A DNA stretch of 64,000 nt from a virus (lineage: Duplodnaviria > Caudoviricetes), in IMG/VR virus record IMGVR_UViG_2907546677_000002, positions 1 through 64,000 of that record. One strand, written 5' to 3'. Below are positions 1,447 to 60,976 of this stretch, piece after piece; the stretch's first letter is position 1, and each line of letters begins with the position of its first letter. The position numbers were made by a program, and so were the translations under genes. Under the pieces are notes generated by a model that did not search any database, was not told where the DNA came from, and saw only the letters and a program-made list of their open reading frames with translations.

Positions 1447-1472
1447 GTGTGAACTTTTACAGTGTATCACGT
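1447..1472 (-). promoter_or_regulatory. 26-bp promoter/operator motif copy 1
   Basis: Minus strand ACGTGATACACTGTAAAAGTTCACAC; extended -10 TGaTACACT. Confidence 0.8.
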
Positions 1473-1561
1473 CGTGTGGCCGATGTGCCGGAATACGACG
1501 GCGCCCGCAGCCGTGTTCCGGACTGCGGGCACCGATGATGCCGTATGGCGTTTCGGCCTCG

Positions 1562-2527
1562 TCAGGCCCCGACCGTGAGCATCGCCTTCCGCAGGGCCCA
1601 GTCGGGGACCCCCAGCTCCTTCGGTCGCTTGTCATAGCCGGCGGCCAGCACGCTGCCGTCGGGCATCTCCACGCTCCCGTACCCGGATGCGAGGATCCAC
1701 TTCGCGGCCGTGTCGGCCGAATCCTTGTCGCCGTAACCGGCCTCGGCTCCCAAAGAGGCCATGAGGCTGATGCCGGTGAGCGCCTGGCGGATGCTGGTCC
1801 GCGCGAATTCCGCGATCGGGCTTTCGGCGCTGATCGTGAAAGGCTGCCAGTCGCATGCCCCCGTCTTCTCGAACACCCAGAACTGCACGGACTTCGGGAC
1901 GCGCGTCCCGCGGTTGAACATGCCGTCCGGGCACAGGGCGACGGCCTGACGGTAGAACTCCGCCTGGATGTGGTACCCGTGGTCGAACGCAGACCGGGAG
2001 AACGAGTCCTCGTCGGCTGCGGCCGCGGTCTTCAGGTCCACAAGGAAGTCCGTTCCGGCGGGGATGAGGTCGGGTTTCGCCTTGAGCGTCAGCCCGGTCG
2101 CCGCGTCGGTCCATTCGATGGCCTGCTCGCAGGTCCCCTCCTGGATCATGCCCATGTAGTCGGGGTATCCGTCCCGTCCGCTGATCTTCTCGATGTTCGA
2201 CCTCATGCGCTTGAGCAGCGTCAGGTCGCTGTAGGAGACGACGATGTTGCCCGCGGCCTCCTGCTCGGTGCGCCACTGCCTGTTCCTCGCGGATTTGTAC
2301 GTCTCGCCTTCGTCGAGGCTGACGACGTTGCCCGTACCCATCAGGAAGGCGTGGAACGCGGTGCCGAACCGCATCGCGTCGGTCGGCTGGCTTTCCTCGC
2401 CGCCGAGCCGCGCGAAAGCCCAGTCGGCCGGGTTCTTGAGGAACTGCTTCAGCTGGCTCTGGTCGAGCGACGGGAGCGCGAAATACTCCGGGTCGTCGAT
2501 GTCGAGGGTGCGTGCGCGCTGGCTCAT
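1562..2527 (-). CDS. PD-(D/E)XK exonuclease, RecE/ExoVIII-like (DUF3799-type)
   Basis: N-terminal YFALPSLDQSQLK, AMRFGTAFHAFL, LKAKPDL, LVDLKT and YHIQAEFY motifs. Confidence 0.85.
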   Translation of the reverse strand: MSQRARTLDIDDPEYFALPSLDQSQLKQFLKNPADWAFARLGGEESQPTDAMRFGTAFHAFLMGTGNVVSLDEGETYKSARNRQWRTEQEAAGNIVVSYSDLTLLKRMRSNIEKISGRDGYPDYMGMIQEGTCEQAIEWTDAATGLTLKAKPDLIPAGTDFLVDLKTAAAADEDSFSRSAFDHGYHIQAEFYRQAVALCPDGMFNRGTRVPKSVQFWVFEKTGACDWQPFTISAESPIAEFARTSIRQALTGISLMASLGAEAGYGDKDSADTAAKWILASGYGSVEMPDGSVLAAGYDKRPKELGVPDWALRKAMLTVGA

Positions 2528-2528
2528 G

Positions 2529-3173
2529 TCACTCCCCCTCCCTGCTGTCCGTGATGTCGCCTTCGGAGAGCTCTTCTTCGGTCAGGTCGGCTTCGTCAAC
2601 GTAGAGCCGGGTCTCGCCGCCTTTCTTTTCGACGACCATCTGGGGTTCGTCGTAGGTGACCGGCTCCCCGGTCTCCGGGTCGAACTCGGGGTCCACGTCC
2701 ACGGGGTCGGCGACGTGCAGTCCGCCTCCGTCCGCTGCGAGCTGCGCGCGGTTGACTTCCTCCCAGCGCTTCGCCCATTTGTTCTCCTCCTCCTCGTAGC
2801 CGGGGTAGGGTTCGATGCCCTTGGTCTCCCATGCGACGATCTGCTTGGGGGTGACGGGCTGCGAGGGGTGGAACTCTTCGGTCAGGTCTTCGGGGATGGG
2901 CACGGTGTACCCGTCGCGCTTGTCCTCCTGGTCTCGTTCTTCCGGGGTGAGGAACCTCGCGGTTGCCGGAATCGTTTCGCTCATGATCTTTTTCCTTATC
3001 TGTGAGGACGTTTCGAGATATTCGAGCACGTGCAGGTACAGGCCGTGGGGCATGCCGTCGGTGTCGTTCTCGTACTTCGTGTACGTGTTGACGCTGACGT
3101 CGCAGAGTTCGGACATCTCTTTTTTTGTTTTGCCTGCTTTCAGGCGGAGCTGTTTGAGCAGCGAGTGTTTCAT
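2529..3173 (-). CDS. XRE-family HTH protein with acidic C-terminal extension
   Basis: LKQLRLKAGKTKKEMSELCDVSVNTYTKYEN is a Cro/CI-type HTH. Start taken at ATG 3173. Confidence 0.75.
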   Translation of the reverse strand: MKHSLLKQLRLKAGKTKKEMSELCDVSVNTYTKYENDTDGMPHGLYLHVLEYLETSSQIRKKIMSETIPATARFLTPEERDQEDKRDGYTVPIPEDLTEEFHPSQPVTPKQIVAWETKGIEPYPGYEEEENKWAKRWEEVNRAQLAADGGGLHVADPVDVDPEFDPETGEPVTYDEPQMVVEKKGGETRLYVDEADLTEEELSEGDITDSREGE

Positions 3174-3264
3174 CCGCGCCTCCGGCAGATAGTCGGGGTC
3201 GGAAAACGGGTTCCGGCCTCTTGGTGTATGATGACGATTACCAGTATACGCGACTTCAAAAACT

Positions 3265-3294
3265 TGCATATCACAGTTGATGTGAACATGTCAA
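3265..3294 (-). promoter_or_regulatory. sigma70-type promoter with overlapping imperfect palindrome
   Basis: TTGACA (3294-3289), 18 nt, then TG-a-TATGCA. GTTGA...TCAAC dyad at 3276-3295. Confidence 0.45.
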
Positions 3295-4710: not shown

Positions 4711-7074
4711 TCAGAGGTTCGTCCCACTGTTGCCCGGCGGTGGCGTAGGCGTCGGGGTCGGCGTGGGAGCGGGCGTGGTCGTCTGCCTCTTCGGCGTGGG
4801 CGTCGGAGTGGTCTTCGGCGTCGTGTACTGGCGTCGCGGCGTGTACGAATAGCCGCTGCCGTTGCTGGACTGCGAGCGTTGCTGTTGCTGCTGTTGGGCC
4901 TTCTTCTGGGCTTCGGCCTGCTCCTTCGCCTTCTTCTCGGCGTCATCCTTGGCTCTCTTGTCGGCCTTCTCCTTGGCGACCTTCGCGACCAGCTGGCGCA
5001 GCTGCTCCCCCGCGTCGCCGGCGTCCTTCAGGTTGTCTTTGGTGACCTGGACTCCCTTCCACTCCCCCATCAGCTTTTCCATATCCTGTTTGCCGGTCGA
5101 ATCCGGCGCGTCCTTCAACCCCTCCCCCTGCTGTATGAGTGACTGGAGGGTTTTGCCCGTCTCCTCGGCCTTCTTGTCCATGAGGGTTCCATACTCGTCG
5201 TTCAGGTTCTTGTATGCCGTGTCCGCTTCACGCAGTGCCTTGCGCAGTGCGGTGGACGTCATGGGGCGTTGCTTTGTGACCGTCTGCAGGTTCTCCATCA
5301 GTTTCTTCACTGGCGGGTCGTCGTTCAATCCCATGTCCTCGATCTGCGTGATCAGGGCGGACGACTCCCCCTGCATGCGCTCCCACCTGCCCTGCAGTTG
5401 GGTGAGCTCGTTCTTCGCCTGCTGGGTTATCTCCTGCTGTCTTGCCTCCTCTTGCTTGCCTTGTACCGTGAGGTAGATCGCGTATCCGCCGCAGGCGAGC
5501 ACCACCGTGAGGGCGGTGGCGATGATGGCTATGAGAACAGCCATCCCCTTTCCTTTTTTCGTGGCGTCACGTGGAGCCGTTCCCACATCGGGACGGTATG
5601 CCAGTGGGACGTTCTGACGGTCTGCCGGCATACCGCCGTACTGTTCTCCCGGCGTGACGTTCTGTTTGTATGCCGGCATGCCGTCGCGCTGTTCCGGCAT
5701 GCCCGTCCCGTCATCATCCCAGTCTCTCCAGAAGCCGTCGTCCTGCGCGCCTTCCTGGGGCTGTTCCGCCGTCATGACATTCTGCCGTCGTGCGGTTGTG
5801 CCGTTCAGCCATGTTGACGTTGCACCGTCCTTCTGGCGTGCCGTCTTGCCGTTGTCCTTTTGTGCCGGCAATCCGTTCTGGTACCGCATCGGATCTACGG
5901 CAACCTGTCCCGCCTGTCCGCCGTCAAACCCGTCAGACTGCATTCCATCATCACGGTACGCCGTTTCGCCGTTTCGCCATCGCGCCGTCACGCCGTTTTC
6001 CCGTTGGGTTAGAGAACCGCCGCGACGTTCGGACGTTCCTCCGCCGTCTCCACTCTGCGGGTTCTGATCCTCGTCGGCTCCTTCCCAGACATCCCACATG
6101 TCGTCAGGGTCGGGGTCGTCGTGGGCGCTGGTGCCCGCCGGCGGATCGCCGTCCGGCTGCGCGGCTTCCCGCGGTTCGTACGTTGCGCCGTCGGAACCGC
6201 CCGACGGCGCAACGTCGCCACGTTCTTGTGTCGTAACGTCATGCCGTTGCGCCGTCATGCCGTTCTGTCGGGTTCCGCTCAGGCCGGCGTCATAGTTCCG
6301 CGTCGGATCCTGGGGTTCGGCTGGCGGGGCGATAGGATCATCCCAGTCGCCCCACATGTCATCCCGGGAATCCGGGGATTGGTTCCGGTAGGATGGCTCC
6401 CGCGCTGTCATGCCGTCATCACGTGACGCCGTTTCGCCGTCGTCTTGTCGTGCCGGTATCCCTGTGCCCTTTTCAGCCGCTATGCCGTGGTCACGTCCCA
6501 ACGGTTCGACGTTGGCACGTTCCGCCTGTACACCGTTGGATGTGGCGGCATCAGGGGCGTCATGCCGGGCTTCCGGCTCGTCGAGGTCGCCCCACGGATC
6601 ATCCAGGTCTATTTCGGGGTATTCGCCGCGACCTGCGTCCGACGTTGCGTCGTGTCCACTGTCTGCCGTGTAGCCGGCATGACGTTCCGCCGGTTCCACG
6701 GTATCCCGTCGTTCCGAGGAAACGGCATCACGTTGTTCTGGTGGCACGGCGTCATGTTGCGCCGGGGCATCGGCGGGACGTTTCACCGTAATGCCGGTGT
6801 CACGTTCAGCCGTTGAGACATCACGACGTGACGCCGGTTTCCTGTGGTCACGTGTGACAGGGGAGCCGTCATGCTGTTGCGCCGTCCCGCCGGTGTGATG
6901 TCGCGACGACATGCCGCCTTCCCGTCGAACCGTTTCACCATCATCCCGTGACGACGTTCCACCGGCGTGACGTTCCCACGTGCCGCCGTTTCGCCGGTCT
7001 TCCGTTTCGCCGGTGTCGGGCATCAGCAGGGAATCATCCAGCTCATTGCTTCCCGTGAGCCAGTCGTCGGCCAT
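4711..7074 (-). CDS. membrane-anchored protein: long 8-aa pseudo-repeat N-terminus, TM helix, coiled coil, P/T-rich tail
   Basis: GGAGG SD before ATG 7074. TM segment MAVLIAIIATALTVVLACGGYAIYL. 8-residue periodicity, e.g. QNGLPAQK/DNGKTARQ/KDGATSTW/LNGTTARR. Confidence 0.75.
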   Translation of the reverse strand: MADDWLTGSNELDDSLLMPDTGETEDRRNGGTWERHAGGTSSRDDGETVRREGGMSSRHHTGGTAQQHDGSPVTRDHRKPASRRDVSTAERDTGITVKRPADAPAQHDAVPPEQRDAVSSERRDTVEPAERHAGYTADSGHDATSDAGRGEYPEIDLDDPWGDLDEPEARHDAPDAATSNGVQAERANVEPLGRDHGIAAEKGTGIPARQDDGETASRDDGMTAREPSYRNQSPDSRDDMWGDWDDPIAPPAEPQDPTRNYDAGLSGTRQNGMTAQRHDVTTQERGDVAPSGGSDGATYEPREAAQPDGDPPAGTSAHDDPDPDDMWDVWEGADEDQNPQSGDGGGTSERRGGSLTQRENGVTARWRNGETAYRDDGMQSDGFDGGQAGQVAVDPMRYQNGLPAQKDNGKTARQKDGATSTWLNGTTARRQNVMTAEQPQEGAQDDGFWRDWDDDGTGMPEQRDGMPAYKQNVTPGEQYGGMPADRQNVPLAYRPDVGTAPRDATKKGKGMAVLIAIIATALTVVLACGGYAIYLTVQGKQEEARQQEITQQAKNELTQLQGRWERMQGESSALITQIEDMGLNDDPPVKKLMENLQTVTKQRPMTSTALRKALREADTAYKNLNDEYGTLMDKKAEETGKTLQSLIQQGEGLKDAPDSTGKQDMEKLMGEWKGVQVTKDNLKDAGDAGEQLRQLVAKVAKEKADKRAKDDAEKKAKEQAEAQKKAQQQQQQRSQSSNGSGYSYTPRRQYTTPKTTPTPTPKRQTTTPAPTPTPTPTPPPGNSGTNL
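5561..7017 (+). repeat. intragenic arrays of degenerate octamer MCGKYNNG with exact 8-bp period
   Basis: Runs at about 5561-5696, 5769-5880, 5945-6048, 6180-6275 and 6405-6540, plus a near-unbroken run of 47 register positions at 6642-7017 (e.g. ACGTTTCA CCGTAATG CCGGTGTC ACGTTCAG CCGTTGAG). Confidence 0.85.
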
Positions 7075-13356: not shown

Positions 13357-13791
13357 ATGATGGCTTTGCTCGCAATGGTAGGTTTCACGATCCTGGTGAT
13401 CATGACTGCGATCTTCCTGCTGATGTTCCTGTTCTTCGGATCCCCGGCCGGAATCAAGTTCACGGAGATCTTCAACTGGGCTACGACCAGCGGCGTCGAA
13501 TCGGTGTGGAACATCGGTTTCACCGCACTGCTGCTGCTCATCCCGGTCGCGATCCAATTCGGCATCTTCATGCTGAGCCAGCTGATCAGCCGTGACTGGC
13601 TGCGTTTCCTCGCAGCGCCGGTCATCTACCTGCCGGTCGCCTGGTTCGTGTTCGACGCGACCCGACAGTACGAATACTTCCAACACAAGTGGATCGTCGC
13701 CGCGGCATTGCTCCTGTACGTGGTTCCCATCATCGGCTCCTGGCTGTGGATCATCAACGACTCTTACCGGCGGATCAAGGCGTCCCGCTAG
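13357..13791 (+). CDS. integral membrane protein (about 4 TM)
   Basis: GGAGGT SD before ATG 13357; almost entirely hydrophobic helices. Confidence 0.7.
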   Translation: MMALLAMVGFTILVIMTAIFLLMFLFFGSPAGIKFTEIFNWATTSGVESVWNIGFTALLLLIPVAIQFGIFMLSQLISRDWLRFLAAPVIYLPVAWFVFDATRQYEYFQHKWIVAAALLLYVVPIIGSWLWIINDSYRRIKASR

Positions 13792-14078
13792 CCGAGTTGG
13801 GTTTTCGCCTCGTCGATTACCTGCTGCAGTTCGTCGCCGACCTTGATGTCCTCCATGTAGTAGTACGCGCTGCGCCACTGGCTTGAGTTCGTCTTGCGTT
13901 GGGCGGCGCTCACCTTCACGCTTCCCTGAACCCATTCTCCGCTCTCGTCGCGGGTGAATCGGATGATGGCTGTTCGGGCGAGCACCTGCGTGCCGTCAGT
14001 CTTATCCAAGATCAGCTGAGGGTCAAGCTTCCTGATCACTTCGGCGGTGCGATGCGTGCTGTCAGTCGACTGGATCAT
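13788..14078 (-). CDS. hypothetical protein, paralog of 21818..22123
   Basis: Shared pattern KLDPxLxxxxxDGTxVLxR...W..AY.Y..D......L...IDEA. Confidence 0.65.
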   Translation of the reverse strand: MIQSTDSTHRTAEVIRKLDPQLILDKTDGTQVLARTAIIRFTRDESGEWVQGSVKVSAAQRKTNSSQWRSAYYYMEDIKVGDELQQVIDEAKTQLG

Positions 14079-14610
14079 ATGCTTCCTTCCTTGTCGCGTA
14101 GATGAGGTTCGAACCGTGCCCGCGCATCACGCTGTCGCGCAGCGGGATGGGGCGCTTGTATCCGCCGTTGCGGATGGATGCGGCGAACTCGTATTCTTCG
14201 AACGGGAATCCATGTCCGCTGGTCACGTCGTCCAACTGCACCCACCGGTTTCCGGTGTCGGCGCAGGCTTCCGGCATGGTGTACCGGCTGTCCGTCGGGG
14301 GTTGCTTGTCGTCGCCGACGTCGTGGATGTCTCCCATGAGCCAGTCGTCGTCGGTCGTCCAGATGATGAGCCGCTGGCACATTTTGAGGTTCATGACGCT
14401 TGCCCCGTTGAATCGGGTGAGGAGGTGCCCGTCATGGTTGTGCGCGTGGCCGGCGAGCGTGTGGATGTAGTTGGCTCCGTCGCCGGGCTGCCAGTTGTAG
14501 CGTATTTCCGTCTTGTGGTCGGCGCGGACGTATTCCCGGCCGACCTGTCTTTTGATGCCGCTGAGTCGGCGGAATGCGACGCGCTGTCCGGCTGGTTTCC
14601 GTGTTTTCAC
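14062..14610 (-). CDS. hypothetical protein
   Basis: 182-aa ORF with AAAGGA SD before GTG 14610, downstream of motif copy 2. Confidence 0.65.
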   Translation of the reverse strand: MKTRKPAGQRVAFRRLSGIKRQVGREYVRADHKTEIRYNWQPGDGANYIHTLAGHAHNHDGHLLTRFNGASVMNLKMCQRLIIWTTDDDWLMGDIHDVGDDKQPPTDSRYTMPEACADTGNRWVQLDDVTSGHGFPFEEYEFAASIRNGGYKRPIPLRDSVMRGHGSNLIYATRKEAYDPVD

Positions 14611-14632: not shown

Positions 14633-14658
14633 GTGCAGACATTATCAGTGTATCACGT
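14633..14658 (-). promoter_or_regulatory. 26-bp motif copy 2
   Basis: ACGTGATACACTGATAATGTCTGCAC. Confidence 0.8.
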
Positions 14659-15069: not shown

Positions 15070-15171
15070 CTTGCCGACGCCGGAAGGGTAGCCGTCCAAT
15101 TGGCAGTAGATCGCGCTGATCATGAAGTCCGGGTTGGTGGTTGCGATGATGCTTCGGGTGCCCATGCTCAC
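14758..15171 (-). pseudogene. chimeric ORF: unrelated N-terminus fused in frame to the TnpB C-terminus
   Basis: MGTRSIIA...IYCQLDGYPSGVGKL joined to EYKTRL...; junction near 15066-15070. Confidence 0.7.
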
Positions 15172-15782: not shown

Positions 15783-15808
15783 GTGTGGACATTTTCAGTA
15801 TATCACGT
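15783..15808 (-). promoter_or_regulatory. 26-bp motif copy 3, with consensus -35
   Basis: TTGACA (15824-15819), 16 nt, then TATACT within ACGTGATATACTGAAAATGTCCACAC. Confidence 0.85.
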
Positions 15809-18302: not shown

Positions 18303-18317
18303 GGGGGAGGCTCCTTC

Positions 18318-21730: not shown

Positions 21731-21777
21731 ATATGTTTGTCAGGCGTTGAATCGCAAGGATTCCCAGGATTCATCCC

Positions 21778-21803
21778 ACGAGATACACTGTGAAGCTCTG
21801 CGC
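21778..21803 (+). promoter_or_regulatory. degenerate copy of the 26-bp motif, pointing away from virB4
   Basis: ACGAGATACACTGTGAAGCTCTGCGC; no + strand gene follows. Confidence 0.45.
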
Positions 21804-21817
21804 AGAATCCGGCCTTG

Positions 21818-23159: not shown

Positions 23160-23429
23160 TCATGTGCAGACTTTTTCAGTATCGCACGTCGGAGTGGCGG
23201 AAAGCCGCCGCCAATACAAGAACGACGGAATCGGCGCGACGATCCCCGCAGCCAAGAAGACGGTGCACAACACCAGTCTGACCCGTCCCGGCGAAGCCAG
23301 AAGAACAACGAAGACGACGCCCGCGACGGCGTACAGGACGCCCGAGCACACCATCGCGGCGAACATGCTCCACGCCTCCCTCGTCTCCCGTTTCCGGGCA
23401 CGCGCGGCGGCCCGACCGTCAGCATCCAT
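23160..23429 (-). CDS. small 2-TM membrane protein
   Basis: Two hydrophobic helices; operon-like overlap with the upstream gene. Confidence 0.55.
   Translation of the reverse strand: MDADGRAAARARKRETREAWSMFAAMVCSGVLYAVAGVVFVVLLASPGRVRLVLCTVFLAAGIVAPIPSFLYWRRLSATPTCDTEKVCT
23164..23189 (-). promoter_or_regulatory. 26-bp motif copy 4 (variant -10)
   Basis: ACGTGCGATACTGAAAAAGTCTGCAC. Confidence 0.6.
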
Positions 23430-25004: not shown

Positions 25005-25030
25005 GTGTGGACGTCAACAGTATATCACGT
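25005..25030 (-). promoter_or_regulatory. 26-bp motif copy 5
   Basis: ACGTGATATACTGTTGACGTCCACAC. Confidence 0.8.
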
Positions 25031-27025: not shown

Positions 27026-27051
27026 GTGTGGACTGTTACAGTGTATCACGT
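27026..27051 (-). promoter_or_regulatory. 26-bp motif copy 6
   Basis: ACGTGATACACTGTAACAGTCCACAC, with internal ACTGT-a-ACAGT dyad. Confidence 0.85.
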
Positions 27052-32385: not shown

Positions 32386-32411
32386 GTGTGGACTACTACA
32401 GTATATCACGT
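32386..32411 (-). promoter_or_regulatory. 26-bp motif copy 7
   Basis: ACGTGATATACTGTAGTAGTCCACAC; abuts hairpin tgggggcttg...caagccccca (32411-32442). Confidence 0.85.
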
Positions 32412-33401: not shown

Positions 33402-33427
33402 GCGTGGACGTCTACAGCATATCACGT
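33402..33427 (-). promoter_or_regulatory. 26-bp motif copy 8
   Basis: ACGTGATATGCTGTAGACGTCCACGC. Confidence 0.75.
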
Positions 33428-35507: not shown

Positions 35508-35533
35508 GTGTGGACTTTCACAGTGTATCACGT
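35508..35533 (-). promoter_or_regulatory. 26-bp motif copy 9
   Basis: ACGTGATACACTGTGAAAGTCCACAC; drives the dnaB unit. Confidence 0.85.
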
Positions 35534-35549: not shown

Positions 35550-35575
35550 ACGTGATACACTGTAACAGTCCACAC
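35550..35575 (+). promoter_or_regulatory. 26-bp motif copy 10
   Basis: ACGTGATACACTGTAACAGTCCACAC; back-to-back with copy 9 (16-nt gap); drives the repA-like unit. Confidence 0.85.
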
Positions 35576-48948: not shown

Positions 48949-48959
48949 GTTCCTGCCGG

Positions 48960-49063
48960 ACGTTCCGACGGCGTGCCGTGTTGACGGCGAGCGGTGTCGA
49001 CGTTGTGACGTTCCGCTGGTTTCCTGGCTGGGTGTCACGCCGGTAAGACGTCCAGTCGGTCTT
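48960..49063 (+). repeat. octamer array 1 upstream of parA (parS candidate)
   Basis: ACGTTCCG ACGGCGTG CCGTGTTG ACGGCGAG ... ACGTTGTG ACGTTCCG CTGGTTTC CTGGCTGG ... CCGGTAAG ACGTCCAG TCGGTCTT. Confidence 0.75.
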
Positions 49064-49126
49064 CTTCCCCGGTTAAGCCGGGTGAGGCTCGCGACGCGAT
49101 CCATCCGAATCCACACACGCTTGACA

Positions 49127-49240
49127 CCGGTACGCCGTTGTGCCGTCAGACCGTTAGAACGGCGTCGCAAACATGACGGGATGAGGTTCCAACGGCGTGC
49201 CGTGCCCCCGTTGCAATGGTATGATGTAACGGCGGCAGCG
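49127..49240 (+). repeat. octamer array 2 overlapping the parA promoter (parS/operator candidate)
   Basis: CCGGTACG CCGTTGTG CCGTCAGA CCGTTAGA ACGGCGTC ... ACGGCGTG CCGTGCCC CCGTTGCA ATGGTATG; extended -10 TGgTATGAT at 49217-49225. Confidence 0.7.
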
Positions 49241-49274: not shown

Positions 49275-49892
49275 ATGACCATCATCATCGCCGTGGGATG
49301 CGCGAAAGGCGGTGTCGCCAAGACGACGACCGCGATGCAGCTCGCGGGCCTGCTCACACGATGGGGAAGACGCGCGGTCGTACTCGACGCCGACAACACG
49401 GGCGGCGCGACGAAATGGGCCATGACCGCGATGGACAACAGCGACAGTCTGGAGTTCCCCGTCAGCCCCGTCAACCAGGTGACCTTGAACAGGGAACTCA
49501 TCCAACGCCAATACCCGGACACGTGGGTGATTATAGACACGCCGCCCTCCGATACCGGGGTCATCCAGCTCGCGTTCAACGCGGCGGATGTCATCATCAT
49601 CCCCACACAGCCTTCGATGATGGATCTTCGCCTGGCGGCGGAGACCTACCGTGCGGTGTCTTCGGACAGCAGGACGGCAATCGTGCTCGTCACCAGGGCG
49701 AAGCTGAACACGCGGCTCACCAACGAGACGAAGGAGCAACTGGACGGGCTGGAGGTCACGCGGTTCGAGACGGTCATCAGGGACCGCGAAGCGGTCAAGG
49801 GAATGGCCGGCACAAGTCAGCTTGACATGGAGGACTATTCGAGCGTCGCACATGAGCTCATCGAGTTCGTGGAGCAGGACAGGAGACGGTGA
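49275..49892 (+). CDS. parA: ParA partition ATPase (short, type Ib)
   Basis: CAKGGVAKTT, VLDAD, VIIDTPP, ADVIIIPTQP; no N-terminal HTH. Confidence 0.9.
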   Translation: MTIIIAVGCAKGGVAKTTTAMQLAGLLTRWGRRAVVLDADNTGGATKWAMTAMDNSDSLEFPVSPVNQVTLNRELIQRQYPDTWVIIDTPPSDTGVIQLAFNAADVIIIPTQPSMMDLRLAAETYRAVSSDSRTAIVLVTRAKLNTRLTNETKEQLDGLEVTRFETVIRDREAVKGMAGTSQLDMEDYSSVAHELIEFVEQDRRR

Positions 49893-50315: not shown

Positions 50316-50341
50316 ACGTGATACAGTGTAAATGTTCACAC
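50316..50341 (+). promoter_or_regulatory. 26-bp motif copy 11
   Basis: ACGTGATACAGTGTAAATGTTCACAC. Confidence 0.75.
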
Positions 50342-50358: not shown

Positions 50359-51594
50359 ATGAGGAAAGCCCGGAAACCCACCATCAGACAGTCCCCGTTG
50401 GACTTCGACCAGAAGGAGCGGAAGAACCGCGTCGAATGGGATGCGGTCAAGGCGACCTGGCGGAAAGCGCGCAAATGGAAGCTCATCATCATCCTGTTCG
50501 TCATCGTCGGACTGGTCTCTCCCGTCATCTCCGTGCGCATGGTCAACATCGTCACGGAAATGGGGCAGACGCTCGGATCGAAATACCGTGAGCTGAACGC
50601 GGACAAGCCCGGACGCCAGGCCGCACTGCAGGCGGTCAACTCATGGCTCACCGGAGACCAGAGCGGATTCCGTGCGGGGATCTCGAACCTGTGGTGGGAT
50701 GACGCGACGAAGGTCGGCGAGAAATCGGACACGAGCGCCCTGTCCACCGGCGACGGCCAGACGACCGAATACTGGAGCCACCGTATGTCGTTCACCGACC
50801 TCGCGGACGGGGAGACGAGGGACGTGACACAGCTCGTCGCCATCACCGGAGGAGTCGCCACCGCGGTCGGCGAGCCGACGATACTCCCGCAGCAGGTCAC
50901 CACGAACACGAACCAGTCGTTCCAGCCGACCGGCTACCAGCAGGTCGACCAGCCGCAGAGCTTCACGAACGTGGCGGCCGCCTGGGCGAAGGCGTATGCG
51001 GGCAAGGACAGCGCGGCGTTCACCGTGCTCGTCGGAGACCCGGACGCCTCGCACATGTACCAGCCGGCGAACATCGGGGTCGCGAAGAACACGACGGTCA
51101 ACTGGATGGTCGCGTGCACGAAGGACGGGCAGCCGACCGACAAGAAGAACAAGGAGCAGAACCCGGCGTGGGGGTGCGCGAGCATATCCATCACGTTCGA
51201 CCCGTATCCGATAACGGTCAAGTCGGACGGCACGTCCGACCCGTCCCAGCCGTCAGTCTCCGATGACGTGAACAATTCGCGCAGCGTGAAGACCAGCGTC
51301 ACCGTGCTCGTAAAGAACCCCACGTTGGGCAGCGCGAAGATCGTCGACTGGGGTGCGGACGGAAGCCTGTCCACACTGTCCCCGTACGCGAACGCGGTGG
51401 ACAAGTCTCTCATCTCATCCAGCGGGGACTCGTCCGACGAGTCGGACACGGGAACCGATTCCACGTCCGGCATGACGGGTGACTCGGCGACCGTGCCTCC
51501 CGCCTCCGGGACTGGCGGCGACACGGGCTCCACGTCATCCGACACGGGCTCCACGCCGTCCGGCGAGGATGCCACGTCGATACAAGGCGAATAG
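50359..51594 (+). CDS. bitopic conjugation protein, VirB8/TcpC-like
   Basis: Basic N-terminus, single TM (LIIILFVIVGLVSPVI), two beta-rich domains, S/T/D-rich tail. Confidence 0.55.
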   Translation: MRKARKPTIRQSPLDFDQKERKNRVEWDAVKATWRKARKWKLIIILFVIVGLVSPVISVRMVNIVTEMGQTLGSKYRELNADKPGRQAALQAVNSWLTGDQSGFRAGISNLWWDDATKVGEKSDTSALSTGDGQTTEYWSHRMSFTDLADGETRDVTQLVAITGGVATAVGEPTILPQQVTTNTNQSFQPTGYQQVDQPQSFTNVAAAWAKAYAGKDSAAFTVLVGDPDASHMYQPANIGVAKNTTVNWMVACTKDGQPTDKKNKEQNPAWGCASISITFDPYPITVKSDGTSDPSQPSVSDDVNNSRSVKTSVTVLVKNPTLGSAKIVDWGADGSLSTLSPYANAVDKSLISSSGDSSDESDTGTDSTSGMTGDSATVPPASGTGGDTGSTSSDTGSTPSGEDATSIQGE

Positions 51595-51744: not shown

Positions 51745-52710
51745 ATGGCTCGAAGGAAAACAGGCATGACCGTCGCCGGCGTGCTGTCCGGCACGGCAAT
51801 GATCGTCGCGGTGGTGGTCGGCGTGGTCAACTCCGGCGTGTACGCCACGTTCGCGGAGGGCATGCACCTGCCCGTCATCACGAATGTGAGCCAGCTATTC
51901 CCCGGCGCCGACTCGCAGCACAAGAATGGTCTCGGCCTGAACCTCCCGAAACCCACGGCCCCGGACAAGGGGTCGTCCCAATCGGACGGGAACGGGGGTA
52001 GCGCGTCTGATGGAGTGTCCGCGGAGGGGAAGCTGCCGGCCGGCGCATCCAGCCCCATGAGCGTCGGCGAGGCGTTGCCCGCGGCGAAGGCCATGCCGAC
52101 GGACACGCCGCACGTGAAGGGGTATGACCGTGCCGGCGAGTTCGGCGGGTGGGCGAACAGCGACAGGCTATGCGGGTCGGGGAGCACGCGCGACATGATC
52201 CTCAAACGCGACATGACCGGCGTGGACATGGACTCCCAGTGCCGTGTCCTGTCGGGCACGCTGAACGACCCGTATACGGGCAAGTCCATCGAGTTCCGCC
52301 GCGACGTGTACCAGAAGGTCAGCGGGAAGACACGCAAGGTGTCGGGTGATTCGACCGCGGTGCAGATTGACCATGTGGTCGCGTTGAACGACGCCTGGGC
52401 GTCGGGCTTGTGGAAGGAGTCCCGCAAGGCCGATCGCGTCACGTATGCGAACGACCCGGAGGTGCTGCTCGCCTCGCAGGGGGCCGCGAACAACACGAAG
52501 AGCATGGGCGTCAACCTGTACGGGAAGGGCGCGCCGAAGCAGTTGCACTGGTCGGCGGGAACGCCGAGCGTCTGGCTGCCGGACAACCGGTCGTACCGGT
52601 GCGAGTACATGGCAAAGCGCGTGTACATCAAGCACAAGTATGGCCTGTCGATGAGCTCGTGGGAGAAGTCGGAGACGGTCTCGTATCTTTCCCAATGCGC
52701 CGCTCCCTGA
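51745..52710 (+). CDS. exported HNH endonuclease (DUF1524-like)
   Basis: N-terminal TM; TRDMILKRD, LNDPYTG, QIDHVVAL..AW..G, ANDPEVLLAS...N..KS, WLPDN..YRCEY. Confidence 0.85.
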   Translation: MARRKTGMTVAGVLSGTAMIVAVVVGVVNSGVYATFAEGMHLPVITNVSQLFPGADSQHKNGLGLNLPKPTAPDKGSSQSDGNGGSASDGVSAEGKLPAGASSPMSVGEALPAAKAMPTDTPHVKGYDRAGEFGGWANSDRLCGSGSTRDMILKRDMTGVDMDSQCRVLSGTLNDPYTGKSIEFRRDVYQKVSGKTRKVSGDSTAVQIDHVVALNDAWASGLWKESRKADRVTYANDPEVLLASQGAANNTKSMGVNLYGKGAPKQLHWSAGTPSVWLPDNRSYRCEYMAKRVYIKHKYGLSMSSWEKSETVSYLSQCAAP

Positions 52711-52954: not shown

Positions 52955-52980
52955 ACGTGATACACTGTTATTGTCCACAC
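52955..52980 (+). promoter_or_regulatory. 26-bp motif copy 12
   Basis: ACGTGATACACTGTTATTGTCCACAC. Confidence 0.85.
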
Positions 52981-52999: not shown

Positions 53000-53356
53000 A
53001 TGAGCTATACGGGATTCTCCACACTCGAATACCAGATCAGCATCCACGAAGACAAAGAGGCACGCGAACAAGCCGCATACGAACAACGCCTCGCCGACGC
53101 CCAACAGGGAATCGGCGGACTCGTGCTGCTCCCCGAAGGCGACCCAGCCAGCCTCGACGACTACGTGTCCATGCCCACCCGGCACGACATACTGAACACC
53201 TGCCCCCACGGATGGTACATCGAAGACGGACGCCAGACCCACGGCGTCTACCATCTCAACGACACCGAAGGCAGATGGGAACCATGCGACCAGTACGTCA
53301 TCCACGACAAGCTGACGGGGGACGACCGCTACAAACCCTACCCGCTGCTGCCCTGA
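53000..53356 (+). CDS. hypothetical protein
   Basis: GGGAG SD; first gene after copy 12. Confidence 0.7.
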   Translation: MSYTGFSTLEYQISIHEDKEAREQAAYEQRLADAQQGIGGLVLLPEGDPASLDDYVSMPTRHDILNTCPHGWYIEDGRQTHGVYHLNDTEGRWEPCDQYVIHDKLTGDDRYKPYPLLP

Positions 53357-53371: not shown

Positions 53372-53650
53372 TTGACCGCAAGCAACATCAAGACACTCGG
53401 CGACCTCATGGACCGGTGCAAACCCACCACCGTCCTCGACATCCTCTTCCACGAGAAGGACGGGGTCGACCGGTACCCGCAGACGCTCGGATTCCATCCG
53501 ACCGTCAACAACCTGTGCGGCAACAAGTGGCTTCGATCGCTCCCCATCACCCGACGCGAGCACTATTCGACCGGACAAGTCAAAAGCGGCTGGACCGTAT
53601 GGGTCGGCCAGCCGTTCGATTCGGACTCCTTCTGGAAGGCCGTCCGTTAA
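53372..53650 (+). CDS. hypothetical protein
   Basis: AAGGAG SD before TTG. Confidence 0.6.
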   Translation: MTASNIKTLGDLMDRCKPTTVLDILFHEKDGVDRYPQTLGFHPTVNNLCGNKWLRSLPITRREHYSTGQVKSGWTVWVGQPFDSDSFWKAVR

Positions 53651-53674: not shown

Positions 53675-54151
53675 GTGGCAATGATTAAGACCATTACGAA
53701 CCTGACCACCAAGAAATGGCGTGACATTTACACCAACAAAATCGCCGCCGAATCCCTCATCCTCGAATACATTGACGAATCCGGCAAGACCAACAAGACC
53801 GGATGCCTCACCCAATCCAACGAATTAGGATATTGGGACGCCGACAGCGACGAATGGGAAGATATTCTCAACGCCTGGCTCGAAAACAAGCCGTCATGGA
53901 TCGCATACTCTGACAAAGAGCAGGACTGGCAATTGCTCAGCCAATACTTGCTCGGTCTCACCGACGAACAATCCGATGAACTGAGCGACAACTGCGCCAA
54001 AGCGCATGATTTAAGGAACATCAGACTCATCATGGGTCAAGCCAAGTCACTGACCAAGACCGGGCGAGATGTACTCGCCAATCTCCTGCAAAACGACATT
54101 CCAGCGACGCAAAGCAGTGATATTTACGAGCGAATGGCAAAGAAGGACTGA
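53675..54151 (+). CDS. hypothetical protein
   Basis: AAAGGA SD; 158 aa. Confidence 0.7.
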   Translation: MAMIKTITNLTTKKWRDIYTNKIAAESLILEYIDESGKTNKTGCLTQSNELGYWDADSDEWEDILNAWLENKPSWIAYSDKEQDWQLLSQYLLGLTDEQSDELSDNCAKAHDLRNIRLIMGQAKSLTKTGRDVLANLLQNDIPATQSSDIYERMAKKD

Positions 54152-54450: not shown

Positions 54451-54906
54451 ATGAGCGGGACCCGCCGATATCGTAAGCTCTCCGCCGAGACGTTGGACAC
54501 GCTGCTGAGGCTCATCTCTGAGGATGAGTTGACGCCGAAGCAGATCGCGGAGCGCGCCGGAGTGTCACGCCAACAGGTCTACGAGTACCGGACGAAACTC
54601 AAGGACCGTGAGCAGACCGCGCCGTTGACCGACATGTCCACGCTTGTGATTCATCAGCGAGTCGTCTTCCGCCCGGACATGACCATCGAGAACCCGGAGG
54701 ATGTGAACGGGCCGAGTCTCATCGACCCGGACAGCGGCTTCGACTGTTCCCGATGCGGCCAGTCCATGAGCCGTGACTGGTTCACCGTCGAAGGCAACCG
54801 AATCAAACCGGATTTCCGCTATTGTCCCGGATGCGCGGGCGTGGCTACCCCATACAGGGACGACACGATAAGCCCCGATGCGAGGGAGGCGGGCTATGAG
54901 TCCTGA
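54451..54906 (+). CDS. HTH plus zinc-ribbon protein
   Basis: LTPKQIAERAGVSRQQVYEYR; CSRCG and YCPGCA. Confidence 0.7.
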   Translation: MSGTRRYRKLSAETLDTLLRLISEDELTPKQIAERAGVSRQQVYEYRTKLKDREQTAPLTDMSTLVIHQRVVFRPDMTIENPEDVNGPSLIDPDSGFDCSRCGQSMSRDWFTVEGNRIKPDFRYCPGCAGVATPYRDDTISPDAREAGYES

Positions 54907-54947
54907 TGCGGAACGTGTCCGCAAGCACTGTATGCGAAGGGCAACGG

Positions 54948-55196
54948 GTGATGGGCGACTGGCGTGACAAGGCCGCTTGCCGGGACATGGACCCTGACCT
55001 GTTCTTCCCCGCCACGCGGCAGGAGAAACGATTGGCGCTCAAGGTCTGCTCCACGTGCCCGTCGATACGCGAATGCGCACGGTATGCGGCGGAACATGCA
55101 CGGATAAACGGCTACCCGTTGCAAGGCGTATGGGGCGGCATAAACAGAAGCAAAGGCAAGAACTACAGGAACAACGAAACGGAGATGTGGGAATGA
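54948..55196 (+). CDS. whiB: WhiB-family Fe-S transcription regulator
   Basis: WRDKAACRDMDPDLFFP...VCSTCPSIRECARYA...GVWGG. Confidence 0.9.
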   Translation: MMGDWRDKAACRDMDPDLFFPATRQEKRLALKVCSTCPSIRECARYAAEHARINGYPLQGVWGGINRSKGKNYRNNETEMWE

Positions 55197-57028: not shown

Positions 57029-57304
57029 TCAAGATTCCGGGTCAGATCCCACTGATTCGACTGCCTCGAAGAAATCGGTTCGTGGTATCCCCCATTCCCT
57101 GCAGATGCGTTCGAGGTCCGATGGGGCCCATTCCTTGTCGTATGAAAGCCGGTCCTGCACGTACTTGTTGCTTCGGCCTATGAGTTTCGCCAAGGTTCGG
57201 CCGGAGATGGCTCGTGTTTCGCTCTGGGAGCGGATGTACCGGTTGATGCGTCTTCCGAAGTCGCTGACCTCTATCTTGGTTCGGTTCCCGGTCATGATAG
57301 TCAC
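57029..57304 (-). CDS. XRE-family HTH repressor
   Basis: ISGRTLAKLIGRSNKYVQDRL...EW..SDLE.IC. Confidence 0.75.
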   Translation of the reverse strand: MTIMTGNRTKIEVSDFGRRINRYIRSQSETRAISGRTLAKLIGRSNKYVQDRLSYDKEWAPSDLERICREWGIPRTDFFEAVESVGSDPES

Positions 57305-57320
57305 CTTCTCTTAGCGAATG

Positions 57321-57373
57321 CAATTGAATCTAATTGTAGTCAATAACACGCCAAATATTTGACATTGAATCTA
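57321..57373. promoter_or_regulatory. AT-rich divergent control region with repeated operator
   Basis: ATTGAATCTA at 57323 and 57364; TTGACA at 57359; CAATT-N6-AATTG dyad. Confidence 0.55.
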
Positions 57374-57434
57374 TTTACATGCAATATAAGTACCGGCTTT
57401 AATTAGAGCCATAATCCAAACCAAAGAGGCAACG

Positions 57435-57740
57435 ATGAAAACACCTACCTGGAACGACACCATCAACGGCCGGATTCAAGCCATCGCGCGAATCAACGGG
57501 CTCTCCTCCTACCAAGTGGCTGAAACCATCAAAAAATCCCAGTCGTACGTAATGCAGCGATACGACGCAAAAAGGGAATGGAAGCCATCGGACATTGAGA
57601 ACTTCGCCAAAGCCATGGGGTACAGCATCCTCGAACTCACCGGAGATGACTTTTCCCTGAAGATTCCGACAACAGCGCTTGATCTGCTGGCGTCGACCGA
57701 TACGGGCGAGAACCAGTCGGCCGACACCGGCCGGAACTGA
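57435..57740 (+). CDS. XRE-family HTH (Cro-like), paralog of the divergent gene
   Basis: LSSYQVAETIKKSQSYVMQRY...EWKPSDIE.FA. Confidence 0.75.
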   Translation: MKTPTWNDTINGRIQAIARINGLSSYQVAETIKKSQSYVMQRYDAKREWKPSDIENFAKAMGYSILELTGDDFSLKIPTTALDLLASTDTGENQSADTGRN

Positions 57741-58884: not shown

Positions 58885-59489
58885 AGCAGCTGACATACAG
58901 CGAGACGGTCCAGATCCTGCGTCGCATCAACGCGCATCACGGCAACGCGCCCATCGACGAACTGCAGGCAAGGGTGTTCCATGACGAGCTCATGGATTCG
59001 ATGACGCTGCGAGAAGCGATAGGGGCCGTCACGAGCTTCTATCGGGACAATCCCGGCTCTTGGATGGGTGTGGGTGACGTGAACCGTCTGGTTCGCGCGC
59101 GCCGCCGTAGCCTGCTGCCGTCCGAGCGCGAGCTGGACGAGATGGCCGTGCGGGAGGGGTTGGACGGGGACGGGGCGTGGGCGTTCCGTCGTGAGCTGGT
59201 GCGTTGCGTGTCGGCGGGGCATCCGGCGTCGGATTCGTATCGGCTGGCGTTGGCGGCGGCCCGTCGTCCGGCGTTGGGTCCGGTCTCGTCTCGCGCCGGT
59301 GGCGTGGTGTCGGCGGGCGGGGAGGGGCGTGGCTCCTCGGTTCCGGTGCGGGTGGGGTCGCTGGCCCCGTATGGCGCCGTCGGACCCCGTGCGGGGGCGT
59401 TTGGCGCACCCTCGGACCTGAGAACGTCGAAAACAGCCCCAGGACCGTCTGAAAAACGAAACACCAATAATTCCTCGTCTTCGACCTGA
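58878..59489 (+). CDS. putative helicase loader/inhibitor (G39P-like) following the initiator
   Basis: MT..E...IL..I.A......W/F...L.......A..AV..FY.......G.V pattern and gene position. Confidence 0.5.
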   Translation: MVKQLTYSETVQILRRINAHHGNAPIDELQARVFHDELMDSMTLREAIGAVTSFYRDNPGSWMGVGDVNRLVRARRRSLLPSERELDEMAVREGLDGDGAWAFRRELVRCVSAGHPASDSYRLALAAARRPALGPVSSRAGGVVSAGGEGRGSSVPVRVGSLAPYGAVGPRAGAFGAPSDLRTSKTAPGPSEKRNTNNSSSST

Positions 59490-59559
59490 AACAGCGTCTA
59501 AGACCCCAAAGAATCGTTTACAAACCCATATAAGCCATCAACCAACAAGGAGAACCATC

Positions 59560-59988
59560 ATGGCCGACAACAACACCAACCTCATCCACGACACGTTCAT
59601 CAACCACCGCCCCCACGGCATGAGCATCCAGGAAGCCGAAGCCACGTGGACGGCATGGGCCGAAACCCACCACGCCGAACTCGACCCCCAGCTGCCCGAA
59701 GCGCCCCGCGGATTCGCCTACGCCGACGACGGCAAGGCCACGCCCGGCGACGACTACCGCGGGGAGATCGGCCTGCTGCACGACGCCACCGCCAACAGCA
59801 TCCAGATGATCGAATACATGCTCAAGCACGAGGACCCCGGCAAGACCGGCACCCTCCTGACCCACACCAAGACCGACCTCGAACATGCGTTCAACCATCT
59901 GAAGAGCATCCTCGCACTCCTCGGATGGACGCCCGACACCGGCGACCACGACGAAGACCAGGCCGACGATGAGCCGGAAGACGAGTGA
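59560..59988 (+). CDS. hypothetical protein
   Basis: AAGGAG SD; 142 aa. Confidence 0.7.
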   Translation: MADNNTNLIHDTFINHRPHGMSIQEAEATWTAWAETHHAELDPQLPEAPRGFAYADDGKATPGDDYRGEIGLLHDATANSIQMIEYMLKHEDPGKTGTLLTHTKTDLEHAFNHLKSILALLGWTPDTGDHDEDQADDEPEDE

Positions 59989-60853
59989 GTCACGGGCGAG
60001 CCGCGCGGCCGAAATGCTGCGCGGCTCCCGCCGCATCAATGACTCGACCATACGCAGAATCGCTGAAAAAACAGGTCTCTCCGACACCATCATCACCGAA
60101 ATCGCCAAGCCCATCCGACAGGCGAAAGCCGAACAGGAGGCCATCGACTCGGCCGAACGGACCCTCGCCGCAGCCGAACGGCGGGTGAGGCGAGAACAGG
60201 CCCCATGCCCGATCTGCAACACCGGTTACGCACATCCGTTCGACTTCGATACGCTCGTTCGCATAGGCTGGAGAAAGAACCCGGACACCGGCGACCGCAT
60301 CCCCGTGAGCATATGGGCGCACCCGTACTTCTGCGAATGCTCCAACCGTCGGTGCGTGGCCCGCAACATCTTCCCCGCGGACAGCGAACGGGAGGCCGTC
60401 ACCCGGTTCGTCAACGGCGACTTCACCCACCCCGGCGCCTACACGGACCTGCATGACGGCACCCGGTACACGACGACCGGGCGGGCCGTGGAGGACGAGG
60501 CCGCCCGACTCCTGCGGCATTATCCCGCCGGACAGGTCAAGCGGCTTGGCTTCGACCCGAAGCTGGTGGACACGCTCGCCCTCCAGCTGACCCTCGACCG
60601 GCTGGGCAACCCGGACGCGGGCGACATGTACGACACGACGCTGATATGCCCTCACTGCGGCGGGACGCTCGAATACCGGGAGGCCGTCAGCCCGGTCACG
60701 CGCCGGAAGGACTGGTGGAGGTGCGCGTGCCGGTCGTGCGGGCGGCGGGACAATGGGTCGCATCCGAGCCGGGAGGAGGCGCGGGAGGCGTTCGCCGGGC
60801 TTTCCGGCTCGACGGGCGACGGCCCGCGGGGATGTTCCTTGGCTGTGGGTTAA
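59969..60853 (+). CDS. protein with HTH-like N-terminus and two Lar-like zinc ribbons
   Basis: CPIC...CEC....C.......SEREAV..F and CPHCGG...CAC.SCG.......SREEA.EAF. Confidence 0.6.
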   Translation: MSRKTSESRASRAAEMLRGSRRINDSTIRRIAEKTGLSDTIITEIAKPIRQAKAEQEAIDSAERTLAAAERRVRREQAPCPICNTGYAHPFDFDTLVRIGWRKNPDTGDRIPVSIWAHPYFCECSNRRCVARNIFPADSEREAVTRFVNGDFTHPGAYTDLHDGTRYTTTGRAVEDEAARLLRHYPAGQVKRLGFDPKLVDTLALQLTLDRLGNPDAGDMYDTTLICPHCGGTLEYREAVSPVTRRKDWWRCACRSCGRRDNGSHPSREEAREAFAGLSGSTGDGPRGCSLAVG

Positions 60854-60950
60854 GGGATTGGGAATTAGCGGGCGTTCCCGTCGAATGTTTTCGGTGGGGA
60901 CGTTTTTCGTGTGGTTGTGTTTGGTGTTTTGTTTTCCCTCACCCACGCTG

Positions 60951-60976
60951 GCGTGATATACTGTAAATGTCTACAC
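60951..60976 (+). promoter_or_regulatory. 26-bp motif copy 13
   Basis: GCGTGATATACTGTAAATGTCTACAC. Confidence 0.8.

Follow-up and report, generated by a model that had tools for sequence, protein, structure and literature searches.

The closest described counterpart of the locus studied here is a promoter motif on the Bifidobacterium breve megaplasmid pMP7017. The part available to us of the report by Dineen et al. (Microb Biotechnol 2024, 17:e14405, PMC10832533) describes a 34-bp promoter motif (19 copies, 56 genes) that overlaps the promoter −10 of highly transcribed genes, counts six highly expressed genes and presumes a regulon, with RNA data taken from exponentially growing, established plasmid carriers. 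The same part places the motif before comparable genes in related plasmids and not on bifidobacterial chromosomes, and calls it "likely a transcription factor binding site", with either inhibition or enhancement of transcription as its possible effect; no factor is named. Reporter and primer-extension data for repA/repB (Dineen 2021, likewise available in part) gave vegetative-type promoters and not this motif. Here we analyse a stretch of 64,000 nucleotides (the window), which is the first 64 kb of the 88,103-bp IMG/VR record IMGVR_UViG_2907546677_000002, labelled provirus and with a CheckV completeness of 41%, and on which a preliminary description had noted a 26-base promoter/operator motif. 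The repeated 26-base motif on this element is real and far beyond chance and, judged by the likenesses set out below, it is this element's variant of the published private promoter signal of the pMP7017 family; the core inference of the preliminary description repeats the 2024 publication on a relative.

Motif copies on the element and the published pMP7017 signal

The tested pattern was ACGTGATAyACTG-N5-GTyyrCAC, with up to 3 mismatches allowed in the window and up to 2 over the whole record. In the window it gives 14 matches, of which 8 have 0, 2 have 1, 3 have 2 and 1 (the weak copy at 21778) has 3 mismatches, against a mean of 0.00 and a maximum of 0 in 100 dinucleotide-preserving shuffles of the window. 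All copies listed beforehand, 13 clear and 1 weak, are recovered with coordinates and strands exact. Over the record the pattern has 16 matches (7 forward, 9 reverse), three of them past the window end (66974+, 72440+ and 72809+), and the control pattern read backwards gives 0 and 0. A pattern-blind repeat finder also returns these sites, placing the 9 minus copies in its family D3 and the 4 plus copies, along with the weak one, in D6. The 9 minus copies are all found to the left of 35,534 and the clear plus copies all to the right of 35,550, the switch in copy strand coinciding with a switch in gene strand and a sign change of the AT skew near 36 kb.

The orientation of the motif equals the gene strand for all copies except 72809+ and the weak 21778+. 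Taken as a whole, the repeated element measures 26–30 bp and stands before about 16 gene runs. Among open reading frames (ORFs) that reach 35 aa and whose GC profile looks coding, a start codon is found 11–56 nt 3′ of the motif in 13 of 16 copies, in line with the earlier statement that clear copies sit just 5′ of genes and point into them; copy 1447 has its start codon 184 nt away, 72809 has none, and 27026 is a less clear exception. A purine-rich ribosome-binding site usually lies between motif and start codon, the leaders behind the motif are short, A-rich and run into the Shine–Dalgarno site, and terminator-like hairpins stand directly 5′ of several copies. Conservation has a sharp onset, the first A of ACGTG, and tapers off about 4 A's past GTCCACAC.

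For comparison between elements we define the core as TAYACTG-N5-GTCCACA and number positions from the G of GTCCACA, assumed to be +1. On this element there are 16 core sites, including a degenerate extra site at 74040(−), and copy 23164 is added to give an alignment of 17. The embedded −10, TAYACT, is well kept in these 17 sites (T−12 in 88%, A−11, A−9, C−8 and T−7 each in 94%), as is TG at −15/−14 (94%), so the extended −10 that had been read into the motif is there. Downstream, A occupies +9 to +12 in 64–94%, and this element's leader shows no conservation beyond +12. The aligned copies have no conserved sequence in the −35 region, and TTGACA at 16-nt spacing occurs at copy 15783 alone, just as had been described.

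When applied to pMP7017, the pattern of this element matches at 3 mismatches only, and always to one same variant; this variant, searched on pMP7017 in turn, has 23 copies at up to 3 mismatches (control 0). The motifs of the two elements share the −10 TATACT, the following G, the 5 nt, GTCCACA and the A-rich tail, both stand about 60 bp or less upstream of start codons, both are present in many copies on a conjugative megaplasmid with none on chromosomes, and both head orthologous exonuclease, LPD28, pentapeptide, dnaB and WhiB units together with the type IV secretion system (T4SS) run. They differ in the 5′ flank (AYATGY there, ACGTGA here), at +8 (T there, C here, 100% each), in the 5-nt spacer, which is AATAT-like there and loose here, and in the −35, which reaches at least 4/6 matches in 8/26 sites there and 6/6 in 1/17 here. 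The published 5′ flank AWAYATGY is thus replaced here by ACGTGA at −18 to −13 (82–94%); as the 5′ flank also varies among IMG/VR relatives, we regard it as lineage-specific and not defining. The claim that the motif heads many units of one element as a regulon is in keeping with the homologous pMP7017 motif, a presumed regulon by RNA sequencing in the available part of PMC10832533.

The core across three elements and in host genomes

Three elements were compared, namely the present one, pMP7017, and the four motif-holding contigs of a Bifidobacterium callitrichidarum genome. At up to 2 mismatches they hold 16, 26 and 54 core sites, respectively, with 0, 2 and 1 in reversed-sequence controls. 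Positions −12, −11, −9 to −6 and +1 to +7 are 76–100% conserved in all three (n = 17, 26 and 54), and +8 is C here, T on pMP7017 and C in B. callitrichidarum. The spacing between TAYACTG and GTCCACA equals 5 nt in 58 of 58 exact composites (8/8 here), and none of the exact composites of any element has another spacing of 0–4 or 6–12 nt. Dyad symmetry, scored as the best of up to 13 pairs, does not stand out from shuffles (6.94 versus 6.65 here, 6.96 versus 7.14 on pMP7017, 6.98 versus 6.74 in B. callitrichidarum). As aligned, the core is asymmetric and rigidly spaced, and the part upstream of it is lineage-specific and falls outside the family core.

This upstream module consists here of ACGTGA and TG at −15/−14 with no −35, and on pMP7017 of AYATGY with the partial −35 matches given above. 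In B. callitrichidarum it is GCRTGTY (often CGGCGTGTC), present in 31 of 54 sites, 16 nt (28 sites) or 17 nt (2 sites) before the −10, and not found in the other two elements. TG at −15/−14 accompanies this box in 2/30 sites, against 7/24 sites without it (p = 0.06), and the two tend to exclude each other. GCRTGTY contains the complement of the WhiA motif GACAC, which may be a resemblance only. The motif variant of the present element occurs in two metagenome assemblies about 98% identical to it, one of which also holds a pMP7017-type copy, meaning that two flank variants coexist in one element.

Several further patterns around the core were considered and dropped. GTG...CAC here and ATG...CAT on pMP7017 might be taken for a covarying inverted repeat; the CAC of B. 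callitrichidarum has no upstream GTG, and the dyads equal those of shuffles. A half parS-like reading of CACGTGATACA, made from recall only, was abandoned on the absence of the left half. The hairpin loop GTGTGGAC at 52903 was rejected as motif-related, extra GTCCACA heptamers being unremarkable: the record holds 18 against about 10.8 expected by chance, and the 16 core sites account for 10 (9 in the 16 pattern copies and 1 in 74040).

The exact core was then compared with host genomes, using species representatives, some of them incomplete. It is found in 7 of 151 Bifidobacterium and 8 of 236 Bifidobacteriaceae species genomes (the control pattern gives 1 match) and is lacking from 144/151 and 228/236, so that the motif is not equally common at host housekeeping promoters. 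Several copies per genome occur only in B. callitrichidarum (33 exact) and in one metagenome-assembled genome with small contigs (2 exact, and 6 at up to 1 mismatch of a longer TG-containing pattern). When contigs were scanned with a generic 16-base pattern, 83 stretches came up, 4 of them bifidobacterial and almost all of them lone chance matches in unrelated phyla; this does not amount to a census. Host vegetative promoters follow TTGACA-17-TATAAT, with T1, A2 and T6 the most conserved bases of the −10 (PMC5746004, available in part), and since these are what the host −10 conserves, the extra invariant bases of the motif are not a host requirement. By these comparisons the core is private to the elements.

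The core in its T form is also found in at least 115 IMG/VR stretches, many of them on contigs of 60–216 kb. Among 140 core sites taken from IMG/VR stretches, some singletons probably being chance matches, most have TG-n before the −10 and otherwise variable flanks, and +8 is T in 86, C in 30, A in 21 and G in 3. With at least 115 nominally viral stretches holding the core, many of 60–216 kb, the plasmid family seems to be widely mislabelled as viral.

Proposed mechanism and alternative readings

We hold with moderate confidence, on the sequence evidence above, that the motif is an extended −10 promoter fused to a start-site box that is read by an element-encoded factor. Extended −10 elements of sigma-70-type promoters can dispense with a −35, and 7 nt, the distance from the last hexamer T to the G of GTCCACA, is the usual distance to the start. 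Host sigma-A RNA polymerase would use TG-n-TAYACT in this manner with no need of a −35, and transcription would begin on the G of GTCCACAC or just beside it. C−8, G−6 and +1 to +7 would then form the docking site of the element-encoded factor, coupling the units into one regulon. We assign these bases to an element-encoded reader because the host polymerase can do without them, chromosomes never combine them, and they are fixed despite protein identities of 30–60%; that the start-site box should exceed what RNA polymerase needs had been noted before, and the box is invariant at +1 to +7 across diverged elements. As the reader we favour a protein lying over the start site, and we lean towards a repressor with negative feedback, by analogy with plasmid global regulons.

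Such regulons are known from KorA/KorB of the IncP-1 plasmid RK2 and from ArdK and its partners of the IncW plasmid R388, where one short operator likewise recurs at many promoters, overlaps the core promoter and ties together replication, establishment and transfer units. Those operators differ from the present motif in being palindromes with known dimeric binders; the motif here has no dyad, includes the −10 and has no known binder. The stoperators of cluster A mycobacteriophages (L5 gp71) resemble it in being short, asymmetric, oriented with transcription, intergenic and present in many copies on an actinobacterial mobile element, but they are not known as promoters and block elongation, whereas each copy here comes with a −10 before a start codon.

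Several results weigh against the reading preferred here. There is no candidate binder that is both conserved in all three elements and plausible as a reader of +1 to +7, and dyad symmetry is lacking, unlike in most operators of dimeric repressors. The available part of PMC10832533 places the motif at highly expressed genes in established cells, which a strong promoter or an activator fits at least as well as a repressor. The pMP7017 leader is repeated down to the ribosome-binding site, and the similarity between copies may partly reflect copying of a whole cassette. Finally, the only RNA runs with a relative are assembled contigs covering the whole 20 kb, in which starts are unreadable. These are three runs of one study, with a relative 98–99% identical; over 18001–38000 they give long contigs and continuous cover, and no start, strand or level. 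Contigs of public RNA and DNA runs join or break at motif copies (27043/32404, 33431/35506 and 35546/38000), which we attribute to an assembly effect of the 26–31-nt repeat; it might be misread as deletion or rearrangement.

The search for a reader turned up few proteins. WhiB is the only recognisable transcription factor in all three elements, each time behind a motif copy, and for the HTH_7 protein of the copy 12 unit BLAST detects no counterpart on either pMP7017 or the B. callitrichidarum element. A sigma-70 region 2 (PF04542, E ≤ 0.01) is absent from this element and pMP7017, and three matches in the B. callitrichidarum genome fall on other contigs; very divergent sigma factors are beyond the reach of this search. 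A T7-like or other private polymerase was rejected, as the Pfam scans, which included the large unknown proteins, contain no polymerase or sigma domain. Atlas look-ups of two conserved motif-headed unknowns gave unnamed clusters only, and genes standing first in pMP7017 units, 10 of them scanned with Pfam, yielded one weak match to DivIVA and nothing else.

The preliminary description had proposed an establishment or early regulon, silent in the established state and de-repressed on entry, under one element-encoded repressor (XRE or WhiB). The cargo (methyltransferase, exonuclease, pentapeptide, LPD28 polyvalent-type and DnaB proteins) does fit post-transfer genes, ssb of pMP7017 lies just behind a copy (160428−), and a repressor would be expected to occupy just such a site at the start point. 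We nevertheless consider this reading unlikely: the motif stands among highly transcribed genes of exponentially growing carriers in the available part of PMC10832533, and WhiB-family proteins bind sigma region 4 and not start-site DNA (PMC10243135, available in part). A VirB4-like ATPase and a hydrolase are in a motif-headed run both here and on pMP7017, so that the cargo is not only "early", a 246-aa XRE gene (2529–3269) has no copy in front, and the divergent pair at 57029–57740, earlier called XRE, has no Pfam match. Nothing singles out either an XRE protein or WhiB as the motif reader, and this part of the earlier proposal falls away. A different division of labour would be positive control by sigma appropriation, with the element's WhiB seated on region 4 of host sigma-A and a second element protein reading DNA at private boxes, a design resembling the AsiA/MotA middle promoters of phage T4, which have a good −10, a private box replacing the −35 and a small binder of sigma region 4. 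The Streptomyces sepX promoter has the same features with WhiA and WhiB, the latter binding sigma region 4 and bridging to a DNA-reading partner (PMC10243135, in its available part). Sigma appropriation would account for the missing −35 on this element, for a WhiB gene that always lies behind a copy, for the high expression of motif-headed pMP7017 genes (PMC10832533, again in part), and for B. callitrichidarum, where a box of non-sigma-70 type (GCRTGTY) 16/17 nt before the −10 and the rarity of TG together form an activator-replaces-−35 layout. It is all the same rather improbable, since the invariant box is at +1 to +7, far from sigma region 4 and different in this respect from T4 and sepX (a fixed box in the −35 region is seen only in the B. 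callitrichidarum relative), since an extended −10 alone can explain independence of the −35, and since 8/26 pMP7017 sites have a −35 of at least 4/6, host-type recognition seeming to be in use there. Neither this element nor pMP7017 contributes a sigma-70 region 2, and no partner protein was found. In its fullest form, in which WhiB would free the polymerase from the −35 and an unrecognised protein would read GTCCACA and the lineage boxes (ACGTGA, GCRTGTY), we rate it slightly lower still; if true, the megaplasmid family would redirect host polymerase to its own genes, as a plasmid counterpart of phage sigma appropriation.

It is also conceivable, though rather improbable, that there is no dedicated regulator and that a strong promoter-plus-leader cassette has spread by duplication or recombination, the conserved GUCCACA(C)AAA at the 5′ end of each transcript acting on RNA stability or translation. 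The rigid spacing and asymmetry of the motif would follow naturally, as would the short A-rich leaders into the Shine–Dalgarno site, the recurrence on pMP7017 of the leader down to GAAAGAGGAAA in many copies, the hairpin that directly follows the box in many B. callitrichidarum leaders (by eye) and the occurrence of flank variants of two lineages in one element. However, a role in RNA or in promoter strength should tolerate many sequences, yet +1 to +7 is 76–100% kept at 30–60% protein identity, the host never uses the motif, and the leader beyond +12 is unconserved here. The last reading considered is a single-strand DNA signal, in which copies, especially 35508 and 35550, would form hairpins serving as promoter or priming site while the transferred DNA is single-stranded; Frpo-type promoters are the model for hairpin reading of this kind. 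Copies 9 and 10 are indeed inverted and 16 nt apart, with similar divergent pairs in relatives, but 14 of 16 copies are solitary, so that no such stem is possible for them, copies lie on both strands following gene direction, so that one transferred strand would carry half in the right sense, and the pair is simply two divergent promoters. We therefore regard a single-strand DNA signal as very improbable, and keep to the extended −10 promoter with a start-site box for an element-encoded factor.

Units behind the motif and character of the element

The copies in the window and the units they head are collected in Table 1. From the cargo listed in the preliminary description, dnaB, the C5 methyltransferase, the RNase_T exonuclease, and the pentapeptide, LPD28-like and WhiB genes are recognised by Pfam, and the "repA-like" gene has no Pfam support. 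Among 15 units examined here, 10 contain genes with pMP7017 orthologues (32–63% identity) behind a same-strand copy. They comprise the 292-aa protein next to a PD-(D/E)XK nuclease, the 182-aa family heading the T4SS run, the exonuclease, the pentapeptide and LPD28 proteins, dnaB and its divergent partner, a GmrSD-like nuclease, the 118-aa and 92-aa proteins, and the WhiB unit. Distances on pMP7017 are short for the exonuclease (a copy 59 nt upstream), the LPD28 gene (32 nt) and the orthologues of the first two copy-12 genes (own copies 28 and 48 nt upstream), and amount to 492 nt for the orthologue of the pentapeptide unit; the back-to-back pair of copies 9 and 10 has its equivalent at 56052− and 56120+.

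Table 1. Motif copies in the window, the units headed by them, and the WhiB gene
Feature	Position	Strand	Description
Copy 1	1447..1472	−	0 mismatches; start-site box GTTCACAC; start codon 184 nt downstream
Copy 1 unit	384-1262		292-aa protein, no Pfam match; pMP7017 orthologue (58% identity) also with an upstream copy
Copy 2	14633..14658	−	Start-site box GTCTGCAC; GTG start 22 nt downstream
Copy 2 unit	14062-14610, 13788-14078		182 aa and 96 aa; pMP7017 homologue 83862-84401 with a copy 33-45 nt upstream
Copy 3	15783..15808	−	Sole canonical −35 (TTGACA, 16-nt spacer); 11/12 hexamer matches, TG present
Copy 3 unit	15168-15761		Weak DUF4192 match; followed by a TnpB C-terminal remnant
Weak copy	21778..21803	+	3 mismatches; family D6, 65% identity; antisense to neighbours
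Copy 4	23164..23189	−	−10 GATACT; start-site box GTCTGCAC; ATG 16 nt downstream
Copy 4 unit	22653-23147, then to 16860-18302		22653-23147, paralogue of the 182-aa gene, 21818-22123, VirB4-like ATPase 19046-21730, lysozyme/CHAP hydrolase 16860-18302
Copy 5	25005..25030	−	Heads 24695-24973 and RNase_T 3′-5′ exonuclease 24095-24685
Copy 6	27026..27051	−	Heads C5 DNA methyltransferase split into 26232-26975 and 25417-26598
Copy 7	32386..32411	−	Heads pentapeptide-repeat/DUF5758 protein 31230-32345 and a small-gene run including a P22_AR_N protein
Copy 8	33402..33427	−	2 mismatches; heads LPD28-like protein 32452-33345; TTG 56 nt downstream
Copy 9	35508..35533	−	Left half of back-to-back pair; ATG 11 nt downstream
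Copy 9 unit	35026-35496, 33638-34990, 33441-33638		156 aa (35026-35496); DnaB (33638-34990; DnaB_C, E 1.5e-99); 33441-33638
Copy 10	35550..35575	+	Right half of pair, 16 nt from copy 9
Copy 10 unit	35618-35854, 35873-36361, 36363-36683, 36644-36844		First protein hydrophobic, 78 aa
Copy 11	50316..50341	+	−10 TACAGT; start-site box GTTCACAC; terminator-like hairpin 5′
Copy 11 unit	50359-51594, 51745-52710		411 aa, no Pfam match; GmrSD_C-like protein (51745-52710)
Copy 12	52955..52980	+	Terminator-like hairpin 5′
Copy 12 unit	53000-53356, 53372-53650, 53675-54151, 54451-54906, 54906-55196		HTH_7 protein (54451-54906); WhiB (54906-55196)
WhiB gene	54906..55196	+	PF02467, E 1.6e-16; inside copy 12 unit
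Copy 13	60951..60976	+	5′ end GCGTG; start-site box GTCTACAC
Copy 13 unit	60993-61322, 61350-61715, 61785-61991		No informative Pfam match

The VirB4, VirD4, FtsK and par operons had been placed outside the set. For the VirD4-like and par genes this holds: the run from 36.9 to 50.2 kb (a ParA-like protein, proteins of 511 aa, 868 aa (the one earlier called VirD4-like) and 1137 aa, and ParA) is free of copies, and so is its pMP7017 counterpart. The FtsK operon is cut off from copy 14633 by a conserved opposite-strand gene. For VirB4 the claim is doubtful. The VirB4-like gene lies downstream of copy 23164 in a unit with Pfam matches to AAA_10, Phage_lysozyme2 and CHAP, no minus-strand terminator-like site is predicted between 23147 and 19210, and the pMP7017 orthologue lies 1,015 nt downstream of a copy. 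As the gene is on the same strand behind 23164 with no predicted terminator, and pMP7017 is arranged likewise, its exclusion was probably wrong, and transfer genes are probably inside the motif-headed set.

Two copies run against neighbouring genes. The weak copy 21778 sits in the 87-nt gap between 21818–22123(−) and the VirB4-like gene, pointing antisense into 21818–22123, and is probably either decayed or an antisense promoter. The copy at 72809–72834 (+) faces the 3′ end of a conserved 332-aa gene in antisense direction, with the same arrangement on pMP7017 (173706–173731, −); behind both there are only tiny ORFs of 16 and 18 codons, unrelated in sequence, and 72809 may be an antisense or small-RNA promoter. 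Two of the unit genes call for comment. The C5 methyltransferase (25417–26975, −) consists of two overlapping ORFs that each hold part of PF00145, which makes a frameshift or a phase-variable tract likely, and the LPD28-like protein 32452–33345 matches PF18843 at 26.6 bits, just below the cut-off of 27.

Pfam recognises on the element DnaB, two FtsK-like ATPases, a VirB4-like AAA_10 ATPase, a lysozyme/CHAP hydrolase and ParA-like proteins, and in addition a C5 methyltransferase, RNase_T, pentapeptide-repeat and LPD28-like proteins, an XRE-type helix-turn-helix protein, HTH_7 and WhiB; capsid or tail families are not among the matches. pMP7017 is the sole nucleotide-level relative among plasmids, and the backbone orthologues of the two are 30–73% identical and conserved in order. 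Because no such family turned up and the pMP7017 backbone is kept in conserved order, we classify the element, from its gene content, as a divergent member of the pMP7017 conjugative megaplasmid family and not as a phage. At 64973–66549 of the record two genes are 92–95% identical in protein to pMP7017 at 94.5–96.1 kb; a block of this identity amid a 30–73% backbone suggests that the two lineages have recently exchanged a module.

Further features of the record are listed here for completeness. Remnants of a TnpB C-terminus (IS200/IS605) lie at 14758–15171 (−) and 66611–66964 (+), with a Cas12f1-like TNB domain (E 1.5e-19 and 2.1e-12). Both are just 5′ of a motif copy, and the first is followed by a hairpin-rich tail that by eye looks like the end of an omega RNA. 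A link of TnpB or its guide RNA to the motif was rejected: remnants occur near copies in 18 loci each, at scattered distances, and full TnpB is common on pMP7017. Five 21-nt direct repeats (GCATGGAAATCTA-like) at 62099–62312 form two iteron-like clusters in a low-GC stretch with no confident genes, and arrays of 8-nt period (D2, D4, D14) are found at 5799–7017, inside gene 4711–7074, and at 48959–49204, upstream of the short ParA gene 49275–49892. The motif CGGTTAAT has 0 matches in the window, and tRNA and Rfam scans of the record found nothing.

For the window itself, the motif noted in the preliminary description is a correct observation of something already in print. Its wider meaning is that the pMP7017 motif extends beyond one plasmid, is deeply conserved and marks a whole family of Bifidobacterium conjugative megaplasmids. 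What is new here is the separation of a strict core from lineage-specific upstream modules, which narrows the search for the reader and marks the bases to mutate. The core offers a compact marker for such megaplasmids in gut metagenomes and is a candidate portable promoter for Bifidobacterium genetics.

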